Part shown: in pieces, positions 21,686 through 56,111 of the stretch | Position numbering within the stretch: position 1 is the stretch's first letter | Layout: every line of letters starts with the position of its first letter | Assembly (NCBI RefSeq): GCF_988242995.1 | Contig: NZ_OZ547043.1 | Length of the DNA: 64,000 nt | Direction: 5' to 3' (one strand) | The notes under the pieces: model-generated | What the model saw: the letters and a program-made list of their open reading frames with translations, nothing else | Told to the model about the DNA's origin: nothing | Databases searched by the model: none | Made by a program: the position numbers and the translations under genes

Positions 21686-22540
21686 TTACGCTTCAATGGC
21701 AGCGCGAAGTTTTTTCATCGCGTTCTTTTCCAGCTGGCGCACACGCTCAGCGGAAACACCGTAACGGTCAGCCAGTTCCTGCAACGTGGACTTGTTGTCT
21801 TCATCCAGCCAGCGCGCGCGGATGATATCCTGGCTACGCTCGTCCAGACCTTGCATCGCGTCGGTCAGACGGTTTGCCGCCTGCTCTTCCCAGTTATCAT
21901 CTTCGATGCCGTCAGCAAAGTTAGATGATTTATCCTGCAGATAGAGCACCGGAGCCATCGGCTGGCTGTCGGAATCGTCGTCGGAAGACAGGTCAAAGGT
22001 CATGTCCTGTGCCGCCATACGCGACTCCATCTCACGTACGTCTTTGCTGGTTACGCCCAGTTCACGGGCCACCATTTCAACTTCATCCTGATTAAACCAG
22101 CCCAGACGCTGCTTGGTTTTACGCAGGTTGAAGAACAGTTTGCGCTGCGCTTTGGTGGTCGCAACTTTGACGATACGCCAGTTACGCAGAACGTATTCGT
22201 GGATCTCTGCTTTGATCCAGTGGACGGCGAAGGAGACCAGGCGCACACCCACTTCCGGGTTAAAACGGCGCACTGCTTTCATCAGGCCGATGTTACCTTC
22301 CTGAATCAAATCCGCCTGTGGCAGGCCATAGCCCGCATAATTACGAGCAATATGAACAACAAACCGCAGGTGAGACAGGATCAGCGTTTTAGCTGCTTCC
22401 AGATCGCCATGGTAATGCAGCTTTTCAGCCAGCGCCCGCTCCTCGTCAGCCGACAACATCGGCCACGCGTTAGCTGCCCGGATGTAAGAATCCAGGTTGC
22501 CAACTGGGGCTAAAGCTAAACTTTGCATTTTGTCAGTCAT
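21686..22540 (-). CDS. rpoH: RNA polymerase heat-shock sigma factor sigma-32
   Basis: 284 aa; sigma-70 family regions; full-length match to remembered RpoH ([24 protein letters not shown]). Confidence 0.97.
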
Positions 22541-22660: not shown

Positions 22661-22784
22661 AATGCAAGCTTGTGAATAAATTACGCACAAAATATGACAT
22701 AGAGATGAAATACCGGGAAGAGACAACGGGGTCTCTTTCCCTGCTACGGAACCCATTGCAGGGAAAGAGTATAACACGCTTTTA

Positions 22785-23843
22785 TTATTCAGGCGTAAAG
22801 TGGCGTAAATGTTGTACCGTGGCAAGCCACGCTGCCACCCAGCCAATCATCGAGCATACCAGCAGCAACAGCAGGCATTCATCGAACGATAAGCCATTGA
22901 TATCAAACTTCGTTCCGAAAACCTGTGCCACTTCTGCAACCGCCGATGACAAACGCAGTACCAGAATTTCTGACAAAATTAATGACAGCAATGCGCCAGA
23001 AAATCCCAGCAATGCGCCTCCGTACAGGAACGGGCGCAGGATGAAACCATCCGTCGCACCAATCAGTTTTTGTACGTTAATGGAGTCACGGCGAGCAAAG
23101 ATGCTCAGACGCACACTGTTGCCGATGACGAGGAACACTGCTGCCACCATCAACACGCCGATCATCGCGGAAACGCGCCCGACCAGCCCGGTCAACGCCG
23201 CCAGACGGGCAAACCAGCTGTCATCCATCCGCACTTCGTCAATGCCGTTGATCTGGGTGATACGATCACGCAGCGTATTCAGTGATTCCGTCCCCTGAAA
23301 ATCGAGTTTCGGGATCACCACCGCCACTGCCGGAAGCGGGTTTTCTTCCAGCATATCCAGCGCGCCGCCAAAACCAGACCAGTTACGGAACTCGCCCAGC
23401 GCGTCTTCACGAGAAAGATAGTTCACTTTCTCTACGCCCTGCTCGGCCTGTAGCTGTGCCACCACGCCCGCAGCGGCGTCATCGTCCAGCGTTTTTTGCA
23501 GATAAACAGTGATTTGCGGTGACGGATAATACTGCGTCGCCGCCTGGTTAACGTTTTTGTACACCATATAACAGACGCTGGGCAGCGTCAGGGAGATGGC
23601 GATAACCATCACCGTTAAAAACGTGGCGAACGGTTTGCTTTTCAGATCCTGCAATGCGCCGTGGAAGGCATAGCGCACCTGTTCGTTGAAAACGTTGGTT
23701 TTGCGATTTACCGGTTTTGGCGAGGATTTCGCGCGTTTCGGTGCGTTACGACCGCCGTCGCCTGAGCCGCCGACCGATTTACGGAAGCGATCCAGACGCC
23801 CGCCAAACTGCCGAATATGATTGATTGCATCGCGCTTATTCAT
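22785..23843 (-). CDS. ftsX: cell division ABC-transporter-like permease
   Basis: Start refined to [15 protein letters not shown]; 352 aa; overlaps ftsE end. Confidence 0.93.
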
Positions 23844-24504
23844 GGCCCACGCCTCCATGCAAGTGACCATCGCTCAGGGTGAGCATGCGATAGGAACGCC
23901 GCGAAATCAGGTTGATGTCGTGCGTTGCCATCAATACGGTTACCCCAACGCGGTTAAACTCTTCAAACAGACGTAAAATGCCTTCCGACAACGCGTCGTC
24001 CAGGTTACCAGTCGGTTCGTCCGCCAGCAGTACCGCGGGCTTGTTCACCACCGCGCGGGCAATGCCAACACGCTGTTGTTCACCGCCGGAAAGCTGAATA
24101 GGGAAGTTCTTCGCTTTGTCCAGTAGCCCGACTTTATCCAGCGCCGCCGACACCCGGCGACGAATATCGTCACCGCTGGCACCGGCGATAATCAGCGGGA
24201 TCGCCACGTTATCGTAGACAGTACGGTCCATCAGTAGATGGTGATCCTGGAAAATCATGCCAATCTGGCGGCGCAGAAACGGAACTTCACGGTTTTTCAG
24301 ACGCGTGATGTCATGGCCGCTAAACCAGATTTTCCCGGCGCTGGGCCGCTCAATCCCACAGATCAGCTTCAGGAGGGTACTTTTCCCTGCGCCGGAATGA
24401 CCGGTCAGAAACGCCATCTCACCCGGCTGCATATGGAACGTAACGCCCTGCAGCGCCTGTCTCCCACCGAGATAAGCCTTGCTGACATGTTCAAAGCGAA
24501 TCAT
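23836..24504 (-). CDS. ftsE: cell division ATP-binding protein
   Basis: 222 aa; Walker [10 protein letters not shown], signature LSGGEQQR. Confidence 0.96.
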
Positions 24505-52029: not shown

Positions 52030-52745
52030 CCAGGGTTAATTTGGCAATAAATATCCTCCGGCATAGCCGGAGGTTTTTCAAATGCGCCTATAAGGCTCTC
52101 TTACCAGCCGCGCCCTAACAGGCGCACACGATCTGACATTTGCATCCAACTTCGTTACTTACGGCCCGTAAACGGGCTGCCCGGATAGGGAATCGATAAC
52201 TGCTCTCCCATTTTATCCTCTTCAAGCTGGTGCTTTATGTAATCCTGTATCTTCGCCGTGTTCTTACCCACTGTATCGACGTAGTACCCTCTGCACCAGA
52301 ACTCCCTGTTCCTGTATTTGAATTTCAAATCACCAAACTGCTCGTAAAGCATCAGACTGCTTTTCCCTTTCAGATATCCCATAAAGCCGGATACGCTCAT
52401 TTTGGGCGGGATCTCCACAAGCATATGGATATAATCTGCACAGCATTCAGCTTCCAGAATCCGTACGCTTTTCCACTCACACAGCTTTCTCAAAATACTG
52501 CCTATTGCTCTACGCTTCTCTCTGTAGAACACCTGTCTTCGGTATTTTGGCGCAAAAACTATGTGATATTTACAGTTCCATCGGGTGTGCGCTAAGCTCT
52601 TTTCGTTCCCCATTGGGACCCCCTTTTGATTTCTTGTTTGACACTTGCAGTTGCCAGACCGCAAAGTGTTTTAACAAATCAAAAGGGGTTTTAATAACTG
52701 GCTCAAAGCTGAAAGCTTTCCGGAACCCCCAGCCTAGCTGGGGGT
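52030..52745 (-). mobile_element. IS200-like insertion sequence (IS200/IS605 family, tnpA only); boundaries approximate
   Basis: About 0.7 kb element containing a Y1/HUH transposase gene, with a perfect GC-rich hairpin (aacccccagc cta gctgggggtt) at the tnpA-upstream end as in IS200 left ends; absent from the K-12 arrangement. Confidence 0.7.
52155..52613 (-). CDS. tnpA: IS200/IS605-family Y1 (HUH) transposase TnpA
   Basis: 152 aa from MGNEKSLAHTRWNCKYHIVFAPKYRR; HUH-type motif (YIHMLV) and catalytic Tyr region; start refined from ORF 52155-52664. Confidence 0.85.
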   Translation of the reverse strand: MGNEKSLAHTRWNCKYHIVFAPKYRRQVFYREKRRAIGSILRKLCEWKSVRILEAECCADYIHMLVEIPPKMSVSGFMGYLKGKSSLMLYEQFGDLKFKYRNREFWCRGYYVDTVGKNTAKIQDYIKHQLEEDKMGEQLSIPYPGSPFTGRK

Positions 52746-54260
52746 TTTCTGTGCACAATTATGCATGCTGAACATTCTTCCAGCATGTTTACTGTCACGG
52801 GCGTTAAGACCTAAAACTGTCCCCGTTTCACCTATGCGTTCTCTTCCACCATTACCGTTATGTGCAACAACTTGATTTATACCTAACATTTGTGAGCATG
52901 CTAATAGTTCTTCAAGTTTCGGTCTGTAATCTGTCGAAACAGAAAAATAACGATTAAAGGATCGACAAGAGATAGCCCGGCTAGTTTTAAACTTTTTACC
53001 ATTAATGATGGCATGATGCTTCTTATTAATAATTGCCGCTAATTCGACCGGATCGAGAGCATTGGTCATTTCATCAATAGAGACTGTTATCGGTCCTATA
53101 ATGTAACGTTTTCGCTGATCATCAAAAGTTATCCCATGATGATTTGCCATTATTTTGTATTTGGGGTCATAGAAACATACAGGATAATCTTTTATCCCAG
53201 CGTAGGTATCCTCATCAAGTGGTTTCATACGCGTGAAGTTCTGCATATAGTTACCATTGCAATTCGTTTCATGATTACCAGCTAATACATGAACATTTTT
53301 ATTAATACTCATTATGCGTTTTAACAAATCGATGATAAATTGATCGCCACAGATATTACTAAATCGATCGCCGGTTTGGTCACCCAGAAACGTACATGGC
53401 GTCACTGCGCCCTGATTAATAACTAAATATGGCTGAAGACTTTCTAAAACCACATCTCTTCTGTTCAGAATACTGATTATTGTATTAACATTAATGTCTA
53501 GTTCCTCATTAATTTTTTCCCTTAATAAAACGTTGAGAACTTCATCTTCTATATTAAGCAACTGGCTAAGAAAATTTACTTCTTCAGCCATAATTCCCAA
53601 ATGTCCCGTTGCGAAAAGCGCGTACAAAACTGCACCGACTGAGCCATCGGTATCACCAAAATAGGTTGGTCTGGTACTTGTGGGATCAACGGGTGAACAA
53701 TTGGAGAAATAGATTCTGTCAGCGAACTGGGGTTTTATAATTGTTTCGAATTTAATATCAGATACATTGTATTGCGATATTTTCCAGTTCCAGATGGGTT
53801 TGTACGACTCAGTAACTGCAACATCATTAGCATTATCATTTACTGTCATATTATTAAGTAAATAAACAATGCTGCACCAATTAATATCGGTATCATCAAG
53901 AGGGCAACCGTAATTTTTACTATTAATTGTCACAATAAACTGATAACTATTATTCCTACGTAGAATATGGGCACGCATGCCCGATAGCATACTATATTTT
54001 TCTGAATGATTCGTTTCTATGGTAAATGAAATTTTGTCATCTTGAAAAGATTGTTGGAAACGTTCTATTTGCCAATCATCAATTTTTTCCACAACTTCAC
54101 CGAGCATTGTCCTGGCAATACTTGATATATCATCACCTATACCATTTGCAATATACCCAAACAGTTCTTTAGTGAAGTTAGTAACATGCTCTTGCACCAT
54201 ATCATTTGTTGCGATAGTCGTTATACTGTCGTTAGTACCTGCCACAGTTCCAATTTTCAT
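52734..54260 (-). CDS. yhiJ: DUF4049-type protein with C-terminal PPP-like metallophosphoesterase motifs; 3' end abuts or is altered by the IS200 end
   Basis: 508 aa; motifs GDTDG, GDQTGDRF, LAGNHE in PPP order; SD GAGGT upstream; paralog of the next gene; AT-rich. Confidence 0.8.
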   Translation of the reverse strand: MKIGTVAGTNDSITTIATNDMVQEHVTNFTKELFGYIANGIGDDISSIARTMLGEVVEKIDDWQIERFQQSFQDDKISFTIETNHSEKYSMLSGMRAHILRRNNSYQFIVTINSKNYGCPLDDTDINWCSIVYLLNNMTVNDNANDVAVTESYKPIWNWKISQYNVSDIKFETIIKPQFADRIYFSNCSPVDPTSTRPTYFGDTDGSVGAVLYALFATGHLGIMAEEVNFLSQLLNIEDEVLNVLLREKINEELDINVNTIISILNRRDVVLESLQPYLVINQGAVTPCTFLGDQTGDRFSNICGDQFIIDLLKRIMSINKNVHVLAGNHETNCNGNYMQNFTRMKPLDEDTYAGIKDYPVCFYDPKYKIMANHHGITFDDQRKRYIIGPITVSIDEMTNALDPVELAAIINKKHHAIINGKKFKTSRAISCRSFNRYFSVSTDYRPKLEELLACSQMLGINQVVAHNGNGGRERIGETGTVLGLNARDSKHAGRMFSMHNCAQKTPS

Positions 54261-54521
54261 CTTTTACCTCATATAATTCACCGCGAGGAATACATAGTTA
54301 TCATTTAATCTTATGACAAACACCTCATGTTCGATGGAAAAATAATTATATTTTGCACAAATCATTCAGCCTTAAAGCATAATATGAAATTTCTTATCTC
54401 ATAGTAGAGAAAGTCCCTAAAGATTGTAGAGGCGTCATCAGAACATGCCTCTACAATCGATTAAGAAAAACTATGAAATACTGGCAGGATTAAAAAGATA
54501 TACCACCGTATTCATGGAGTT

Positions 54522-56111
54522 TTAATGAGATTGAAAACAACTAAGCCCTGGGACACCTTTTTTATCACCACGTTCGTTAGGTGCTATCTTCCAGGAATTT
54601 AGCCCCATGGTATAATTATCAATTTCTTGATGCTGATCTACCCCTAATCCATAATGGCCATATTTCTGTTTACTTTTTTTGAGCGCCTGTCCACATTTGA
54701 AGATATCTTCAGGTTTTGGTCTGAAAGCAGTAGTGTTATTAAAATAATTGTCATATACAGGTGTGGATGCTATAGCATTGCTTCTAATTAGATGGATAAG
54801 ACGATCATCCATGTGTTGCTTATGTTTTTTATTAAATATATTTGCTAATTCCTCAGGATCAATTGGGTCTTTCATCTGATTAAATGGAACCTGCAAAGCA
54901 CCTAGACAATAACATTCATTTTCTTCATTTCTTATTATTCCGTGATGACTGGTTAAAACTTTCGTTTCTGAGTCATAATTACAAACATCGAGCGTTTTAA
55001 TTAAGTTATATCTATCACCGGAAGAGAGTTTATGATTTGCTAGTCGTGCACTATAGTTACCATTAAAATTGATTTCATGATTTCCAGCCAGAACGACGAC
55101 ATTTTTATTTATACGACTATCTTTATTACCCTCCATATTTCGCATAGAATTTAGCAAAGTAAGGATATATTTATCACCAAAAATAGTACTAAATCTATCG
55201 CCTGTATGATCCCCAAGGAAGATACAAGGGGTAATCGCATCGCCTTTTAAAAAAACATGTTGATGCAACTCATTCAAGATCATGTCTCTCGTATCTAATA
55301 AAGTGAAAAGTTTTTTCAATTTTTTATTTTCATATGCGAATGAAGCCATGTCTTCGTGTTTTAATAATTGACATAATAAACTCCACCCCTCTCCCCTGAT
55401 GCCTATATGCCCTGAAACGAGCAATGCATAAAGTACAGCGCCCACTCTTCCATCTGTATCGCCAAAATAAGCCGTGTTGGGATTTTTTGGGTTAATCACA
55501 CCACACTGTTTATAAAAGTCTATTTTTGAAAAAACAGATTCAACATAGCTATCAAACTTTTCCTTAGTAAACGTCTCTTTAGAGACAGCCCAACGCCAGT
55601 CAGCTTTAAAATTACCGCTAAGAAGAGTAAAAAAATTTTCAGGTATGATAGAAAACCCATCAACTTTATAAATTATGTCTGATTTATCCCCGGAGAAATT
55701 AATAAAATAATAACCGTCCTTACGCTCAATCGTAACGGTAATGGGAGACGATAATTTTATCACATGGTTATTGTCTGGTATAATTGTAAAGATAAACGTG
55801 TCAGTAGTATTATCGGCGAAACTATTATATTCTTTAATATCTATAGATGGCTCACTATTGTAAAACCACAGTTTTTCTATCTGAGGACTATGTTCAGTTA
55901 CGTTCCAGCAGCCATGTTGCAGGAAATAGATGATATGCAGGCCAAAATCGTTATCTATTTGCGAATGTTTATCCAGCTTATCAATTTCAACTATCTTTGA
56001 ACGATGTTTTTTATCAACATTGCCATGGTGTTGATGACTGTTAACTTTATCTGAATGCTTATCTTGATGGTTTGAAGAGAAGTGCTTAAATATATTGTGA
56101 AATACTTTCAT
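54522..56111 (-). CDS. yhiL: DUF4049-type paralog with PPP-like metallophosphoesterase motifs (intact here)
   Basis: Motifs GDTDG, GDHTGDRF, LAGNHE; His-rich N-terminal segment; start uncertain (56111 chosen, longest ORF reaches 56195). Confidence 0.7.
   Translation of the reverse strand: MKVFHNIFKHFSSNHQDKHSDKVNSHQHHGNVDKKHRSKIVEIDKLDKHSQIDNDFGLHIIYFLQHGCWNVTEHSPQIEKLWFYNSEPSIDIKEYNSFADNTTDTFIFTIIPDNNHVIKLSSPITVTIERKDGYYFINFSGDKSDIIYKVDGFSIIPENFFTLLSGNFKADWRWAVSKETFTKEKFDSYVESVFSKIDFYKQCGVINPKNPNTAYFGDTDGRVGAVLYALLVSGHIGIRGEGWSLLCQLLKHEDMASFAYENKKLKKLFTLLDTRDMILNELHQHVFLKGDAITPCIFLGDHTGDRFSTIFGDKYILTLLNSMRNMEGNKDSRINKNVVVLAGNHEINFNGNYSARLANHKLSSGDRYNLIKTLDVCNYDSETKVLTSHHGIIRNEENECYCLGALQVPFNQMKDPIDPEELANIFNKKHKQHMDDRLIHLIRSNAIASTPVYDNYFNNTTAFRPKPEDIFKCGQALKKSKQKYGHYGLGVDQHQEIDNYTMGLNSWKIAPNERGDKKGVPGLSCFQSH

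Follow-up and report, generated by a model that had tools for sequence, protein, structure and literature searches.

A perfect 12-bp hairpin in the yhiL–yhiJ spacer of Escherichia coli and its possible role at the 3′ end of the yhiL transcript

The REP elements in the malE-malF spacer are intercistronic stabilizer hairpins, which block 3′-to-5′ decay of the message. In Rho-dependent Escherichia coli transcripts, the steady-state 3′ ends lie just past stable stem-loops that have no U-tracts (Dar and Sorek 2018, PMC6061677), and such U-less stem-loops protect against the exonucleases PNPase and RNase II (PMC6061677). Here we describe a hairpin in the spacer between yhiL and yhiJ, found in a stretch of 64,000 nt of DNA (the window), and compare it with these systems. 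The source of the window is E. coli; specifically, the 401 bases around the hairpin are 100% identical to those of strain MEI003 and show 95-99% identity to most other E. coli strains.

Position, structure and chance occurrence of the hairpin

The hairpin and the features that surround it are as follows, in the direction of transcription.

54522..56111, minus strand: yhiL-like gene, 529 aa, with DUF6860 and DUF4049; stop codon at 54522-54524
54459..54521, minus strand: 3′ untranslated stretch of yhiL, U-rich, between the stop codon and the hairpin
54422..54458, minus strand: hairpin with a perfect 12-bp stem and a 13-nt loop, from inverted-repeat reading and folding
54345..54375, minus strand: candidate sigma-70 promoter of yhiJ, TTAAGG-19 nt-TATAAT, read from the sequence
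52734..54260, minus strand: yhiJ, with DUF4049, ATG at 54260, 508 aa here

The spacer between the two minus-strand genes is 261 nt long, and the hairpin lies within it 64 nt past the yhiL stop in the direction of transcription, with 161 nt between its end and the yhiJ ATG. This agrees with the first-pass annotation, which had placed it in the yhiJ-yhiL spacer downstream of the yhiL stop. Read on the plus strand, the hairpin is the inverted repeat GATTGTAGAGGC-N13-GCCTCTACAATC, with 12 perfect pairs, the arms at 54422-54433 and 54447-54458 and the loop at 54434-54446; as minus-strand RNA it reads GAUUGUAGAGGC-AUGUUCUGAUGAC-GCCUCUACAAUC. The upper half of the stem is G+C-rich and the lower half, toward the base, is A/U-rich, and the loop could hold an optional 3-bp inner helix, leaving 5 nt unpaired. 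The perfect inverted repeat had previously been recorded as a 10-bp stem at 54423-54457, which is the correct place; the stem is, however, 12 bp long, and those coordinates span only 11 of the 12 pairs. A further 7-bp helix outside the stem, UUCUUAA/UUAGGGA, was considered as an extension and rejected, as it is broken by an N96-type variant without compensation. The copy in K-12 MG1655 is identical (NC_000913.3, 3632752-3632788).

Folding bears out the stability that had been ascribed to the hairpin. The 35-nt segment 54423-54457 folds with −16.9 kcal/mol as plus-strand and −15.4 kcal/mol as minus-strand RNA, corresponding to z scores of −6.5 and −5.2 (about −5 to −7 overall), and 0 of 200 shuffles were as good. 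The complete 37-nt hairpin folds with −19.8 kcal/mol (plus) and −18.3 kcal/mol (minus). When composition-preserving shuffles were used as the chance model and perfect stems were counted if they had 12 bp or more and a loop of 3-30 nt, 0.12 such stems were expected per 64 kb, and 0.06% of shuffles of the 261-nt spacer contained one. The hairpin is therefore real and non-random. The window contains four such hairpins, and A- and T-tracts are present on at least two of the other three. Among these perfect stems, the one at 22733-22769, CTCTTTCCCTGC-N13-GCAGGGAAAGAG, again combines 12 bp with a 13-nt loop and has no U-run; it stands 16 nt past the stop of a minus-strand ORF (22785..23870) and upstream of another minus-strand ORF (21686..22540), an architecture that is the same as that of the yhiL hairpin.

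The sequences that flank the stem were examined on both strands. On the minus strand the sequence after the stem is UUUAGGGACUUUCUC, in which UUU gives way to AGGGAC, with U at 3 of the first 8 nt, and the sequence before it is UUCUUAAUC, which has no A-tract; the plus-strand tail, GAUUAAGAAAAA, contains zero U. An intrinsic terminator has a short loop (3-8 nt), a G+C-rich stem and at least 5 U in 8 nt, whereas the yhiL hairpin has a 13-nt loop, a stem with an A/U-rich lower half, and 3 U (minus) or 0 U (plus). Consistent with this, a terminator scan of 54100-54700 returned 0 sites. The earlier statement that the hairpin has no flanking U-run is thus essentially right, and a canonical intrinsic terminator is ruled out by the missing U-tract, the 13-nt loop and the empty scan.

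Other element classes were also considered. A scan of 53800-55000 against Rfam 15, with E values up to 10, gave only chance matches to eukaryotic snoRNAs and miRNAs (E 0.6-9). No further copies of the arms or of the whole hairpin are present in the window, and in 4170 of 5426 complete E. coli genomes the hairpin occupies exactly one chromosomal place per genome; it is never plasmid-borne. Being single-copy per genome, it is excluded as a REP/BIME element, a dispersed repeat or the end of a mobile element. It is likewise excluded as part of the IS200 element of this region, which is 1.7 kb away and unrelated in sequence.

Neighboring genes and the candidate yhiJ promoter

The window and many strains carry an intact yhiL gene, whereas the annotation gives a pseudogene in K-12 MG1655 (b4660) and a frameshifted gene in strain JNEC-KY180. 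The candidate yhiJ promoter lies 46 nt downstream of the hairpin, and its −35 element reads TTGAGG in K-12. Genomic SELEX studies reported a constitutive RpoD promoter, TTGACG-19-TATAAT, together with H-NS binding, in the yhiJ<yhiL spacer (PMC3946193). We infer that this promoter corresponds to the 54345-54375 block, which is the closest match visible in the sequence. The block is kept in E. albertii and in locus L097, a deletion-bearing locus described below. "Promoter islands" have been reported at yhiL; after the shift between coordinate versions, these fall inside yhiL and in the yhiL/yhiM spacer and not here. Two short reading frames were also rejected, a mini-ORF (AUG-UUC-UGA) in the minus-strand loop and a 26-codon plus-strand ORF from the ATG at 54445; common variants lack the start codon of the first as well as that of the second.

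The far end of yhiJ has been altered in this genome. IS200C, of the IS200/IS605 family, spans 52037-52770 and is inserted in the 3′ end of yhiJ, where it replaces the last codons; its Y1 transposase is encoded by the minus-strand ORF 52155..52664. As a result, yhiJ is shortened to 508 aa, compared to 540 aa in K-12 and MEI003, and homology to K-12 yhiJ ends left of ∼52757. A 10-bp hairpin at 52724-52746, AACCCCCAGC-CTA-GCTGGGGGTT followed by TTTT (plus strand), overlaps the new yhiJ stop codon and lies inside the stretch that matches IS200C, not in yhiJ. Beside the IS200 junction, inside yhiJ at 52768-52783, the sequence CTGAACATTCTTCCAG has the spacing of a LexA box (CTG-N10-CAG) and may be regarded as a candidate only.

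Both genes encode DUF4049 proteins, which share GDxxGDR and GNHE motifs (LGDQTGDRF and LAGNHETN in YhiJ; LGDHTGDRF and LAGNHEIN in YhiL). These motifs are reminiscent of calcineurin-like metallophosphoesterases. Homologs with E values of at most 1e-5 are found almost only in Escherichia.

Natural variation in the spacer

We compared ∼90 hairpin-spanning copies from E. coli genomes and metagenome contigs, 53 of which cover the whole spacer ungapped. In these 53 gap-free spacers, 5 of 24 stem positions are variable versus 34 of 224 positions in the rest of the spacer, and there is no sign of selection on the stem sequence itself. That the stem is as polymorphic as its flanks argues against a protein operator. 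As a DNA element, the palindrome would serve as a symmetric operator bound by a dimeric regulator of yhiJ, as some other site of protein binding, or as a cruciform. It is perfect and stands 46 nt before the candidate −35 element, in a spacer for which SELEX reported binding of RNA polymerase and H-NS (PMC3946193), and the genes on its two sides, yhiJ and yhiL, are among the listed SOS-responsive genes (PMC11002266). We nevertheless consider this reading very unlikely. The half-sites of an operator would be conserved above the spacer background, and those of the hairpin are not; the substitutions found in them are asymmetric as DNA and sensible only as RNA wobble pairs; and E. albertii retains the yhiJ promoter block without the palindrome. 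Moreover, the half-sites are 25 bp apart center to center, a spacing that is unusual for a dimer. The spacer contains no LexA-like CTG-N10-CAG box, and the SELEX and ChIP papers that name yhiJ, among those searched, place transcription factor sites elsewhere and none here.

The substitutions within the stem are informative as to strand. Four transitions were found, T54424C, G54429A, G54431A and G54447A (plus strand), and each of them yields G·U, a wobble pair, in minus-strand RNA but C·A, a mismatch, in plus-strand RNA. Specifically, as minus-strand RNA the transition variants retain the full 12-bp stem and fold with −13.7 to −16.9 kcal/mol, whereas as plus-strand RNA they fold with −7.9 to −15.5 kcal/mol, a loss of up to 12 kcal/mol. 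The sole disruptive change in the stem, a C-to-A transversion, is a singleton (L091). Transitions in the spacer outside the stem divide about 10:9 between the same two classes, in a hand tally that takes the majority allele as ancestral; compared to this background, the 4:0 division in the stem has a p of about 0.07, on four substitutions only. The G·U-preserving transitions thus weakly favor an RNA structure in the yhiL transcript, and are suggestive, not conclusive. The strand-specific G·U test is a cheap means to discriminate an RNA hairpin from a DNA palindrome using population data, although four substitutions are too few to decide the matter here.

The same data bear on transcription of the opposite strand. 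An RNA structure antisense to yhiL could be produced from either of two plus-strand promoter-like matches located just upstream, at 54277-54304 or 54354-54383, and the reference sequence folds slightly more stably as plus-strand RNA (−19.8 versus −18.3 kcal/mol). However, promoter-like matches are no more frequent here than in shuffles (3 found versus 2.9 expected), the plus-strand hairpin loses stability with each of the natural stem transitions, in the extreme case to −7.9 kcal/mol, and neither the Rfam scan nor the published tables searched yielded a match or a plus-strand feature. We therefore regard a plus-strand origin as highly improbable.

The hairpin is perfect, or altered by wobble pairs only, in E. 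coli lineages that have diverged by 14% in the YhiJ protein. The spacer that carries it is structurally unstable across strains. Of 5426 complete E. coli genomes, 1256 lack the region altogether. Locus L097 has lost the hairpin along with most of yhiL, and homology to the sequence upstream of yhiJ resumes immediately past the hairpin position, which indicates that the hairpin travels with the 3′ end of yhiL and not with the yhiJ promoter block. In another locus (L103) the spacer is gone, and a YhiL-YhiJ fusion of 555 aa is encoded. Strain ZH142 (locus L003, 3195-4099) has an IS1 insertion between the hairpin and yhiJ, ∼28 nt from the former.

In E. albertii, which was reached together with divergent E. 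coli lineages via protein look-ups, no stable hairpin occupies the corresponding position: the sequence inside the alignable flanks (CTTAATCGAT ... TTAGG) folds like shuffles (z = −0.4). By alignment by eye, an imperfect version is present there, in which 8 of 11 positions are complementary, and the differences between E. albertii and E. coli are clustered. The E. albertii spacer (L095, 3645-4000) is 356 nt long compared to 261 nt in E. coli; the extra sequence consists of ∼80 bases after the yhiL stop and 12 bases before the yhiJ ribosome-binding site.

Several of these observations would fit a neutral palindrome that arose in the E. coli lineage by a template-switch mutation (quasi-palindrome correction) and persisted in a weakly constrained, H-NS-silenced, AT-rich spacer. 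A template switch would give clustered differences such as those seen against E. albertii, where the imperfect 8/11 version folds no better than shuffles; the stem is no less variable than its flanks; and the region is dispensable, as the 1256 genomes that lack it, the L097 deletion and the L103 fusion attest. A neutral origin keeps some probability because the stem shows no extra conservation and E. albertii has no hairpin, although on balance we judge it rather unlikely. Against it, all four of the stem transitions keep the pairing of the transcribed strand, the only change that disrupts the stem was seen once, and the stem has stayed perfect or wobble-only between lineages that differ by 14% in YhiJ.

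The end of the yhiL transcript and comparison with known hairpins

Published transcript data for K-12 bear on where yhiL transcription ends. In supplementary file 2 of Adams et al. (2021, PMC7815308), one Rho termination region of the MG1655 minus strand has its best coordinate at 3632784, with a Rho score of 2.77 and p = 5e-6. This coordinate falls four bases inside the hairpin (3632752-3632788), but the coincidence is coarse, as the Rho score was computed from 800-nt windows with few reads. In the underlying DirectRNA-seq data, the reads upstream and downstream numbered 73 and 36 without bicyclomycin, and 182 and 249 with it (PMC7815308). The bicyclomycin effect could instead reflect induced firing of the H-NS-silenced yhiJ promoter, ∼80-110 nt further on. 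That the bicyclomycin-sensitive boundary coincides with the hairpin also speaks against the neutral palindrome described above, whereas that reading is in keeping with the lack of a mapped 3′ end: the curated MG1655 Term-seq list (PMC7815308) has no 3′ end anywhere in 3631xxx-3634xxx. The missing Term-seq end is, however, uninformative, because expression there is very low, at only 73 and 36 reads per 800 nt, and yhiL is a pseudogene in K-12. The TRS supplement likewise has no entry at the hairpin.

The drop in untreated coverage could also be produced by the hairpin itself, if it were a weak or factor-assisted intrinsic terminator of yhiL that uses the UUU tail to release a fraction of polymerases, perhaps with help from NusA or NusG. 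The stem is stable, with a G+C-rich upper half, three U follow it directly on the transcribed strand, it is located 64 nt past the stop and before the promoter of the next gene, and coverage falls two-fold across it, from 73 to 36 reads. We consider such a terminator unlikely, however, since bicyclomycin relieves the coverage drop, which points to Rho. In addition, there are only 3 U in 8 nt before the tail turns to AGGGAC, a loop of 13 nt tops a stem with an A/U-rich base, no terminator-like site came out of the consensus scan, and the Term-seq list contains no sharp end.

The base composition around the hairpin was examined for the mild, rut-like excess of C over G that U-less stem-loops of this kind would be expected to have on their downstream side. 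On the transcribed strand, the U-rich stretch between the yhiL stop and the hairpin (54459..54521) is the sole part of the spacer in which C slightly exceeds G, and 80-nt windows upstream of the stem contain C 14/G 9 and C 16/G 12. Downstream, 80-nt minus-strand windows show no C-over-G enrichment (C 8-10 versus G 13-17).

The most likely reading, which we hold tentatively, is that the hairpin is a 3′ UTR stem-loop that caps and protects a Rho-terminated yhiL transcript. RNA polymerase leaving yhiL would not be halted by the hairpin itself, because no U-tract follows it. Instead, Rho would halt the polymerase in the untranslated spacer, around the hairpin or past it, and the 3′-to-5′ exonucleases PNPase and RNase II would then shorten the heterogeneous ends until they reach the foot of the 12-bp stem. 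There the stem would block the exonucleases and so yield a stable yhiL 3′ end, and termination at this position would shield the yhiJ promoter, 46 nt further, from read-through. The data themselves give the structure, its non-randomness, its place between the yhiL stop and the yhiJ promoter block, its strand-specific tolerance of variation and the bicyclomycin-sensitive boundary at this coordinate in K-12; we infer the release by Rho around or beyond the stem, the pausing of the exonucleases, and an effect on yhiL stability or yhiJ insulation; the trimming and stabilizing steps are modeled on the known U-less stem-loops. The reading of the hairpin as a 3′ stabilizer is weakened by the lack of extra conservation in the stem, by E. 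albertii and several E. coli lineages, in which the hairpin is absent, by the lack of a recorded 3′ end, and by the lack of a C-rich tract downstream.

The first-pass annotation had considered the hairpin more likely to be an RNA-stabilizing or processing structure than an intrinsic terminator. The contrast with a terminator agrees with the lack of a U-tract, the 13-nt loop and the 0 scan sites, and a structure that acts as RNA is consistent with the pairing kept in the minus strand and with the Rho coordinate inside the hairpin; the stabilizing or processing function is deduced from these features. The interpretation is therefore partly supported and, while unproven, the best available. A bolder proposal, which we consider a long shot, is that the hairpin is a recent, E. 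coli-specific regulatory element that, from a distance of 46 nt, ties the yhiJ promoter to the end of yhiL transcription, as a Rho/exonuclease checkpoint or a site for an RNA-binding protein that would set the relative expression of the two DUF4049 paralogs once H-NS silencing is lifted. If the stabilizing role is confirmed, the hairpin would mark where one transcription unit, yhiL, gives way to the next, yhiJ, in an H-NS-silenced island of horizontal origin that encodes functionally uncharacterized DUF4049 proteins. Beyond annotation it is of little consequence.

Two hairpins in the window itself offer points of comparison. One is the IS200 end hairpin (52724-52746), which, like the yhiL hairpin, is short, perfect and near a gene boundary; unlike the yhiL hairpin, it belongs to a multi-copy mobile element, has a T-run and is unrelated in sequence. 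The other lies between convergent genes.

57563-57598: yhiM/yhiN hairpin, between the convergent genes, 12-bp perfect stem, AAAACCAGCGTT-N12-AACGCTGGTTTT, with an A-tract and a T-tract

From its sequence, this hairpin looks like a classic bidirectional intrinsic terminator, and the inverted repeat that a study of yhiM depicts (PMC6604978) is probably this one. The yhiL hairpin resembles it in having a perfect 12-bp stem of similar energy and an intergenic position after a gene. However, in place of the A-tract and T-tract the yhiL hairpin has UUU only, and it has a 13-nt loop, which is longer than in typical terminator-like hairpins, and fails the terminator scan.

Compared to the REP elements, the yhiL hairpin is single-copy, with no similar sequence in the window, and is not G+C-rich throughout. 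It shares with REP stabilizers the arrangement of a stem-loop between same-strand genes, which would shield the upstream message from exonucleases. The closest likeness is to the stem-loops of Dar and Sorek (2018). The yhiL hairpin differs from these in that no C-over-G enrichment is found downstream and no 3′ end is mapped at its base. Like them, however, it is stable, follows soon after a stop codon and has neither a U-rich tail nor an A-tract, and it belongs to a poorly expressed gene; in K-12 a bicyclomycin-sensitive boundary, coarsely placed, may coincide with it. The hairpin is most likely an ordinary example of an element type already known, unannotated in a genome that has been well studied, and, if confirmed, would be one more U-less stem-loop that defines the 3′ end of a Rho-terminated message.
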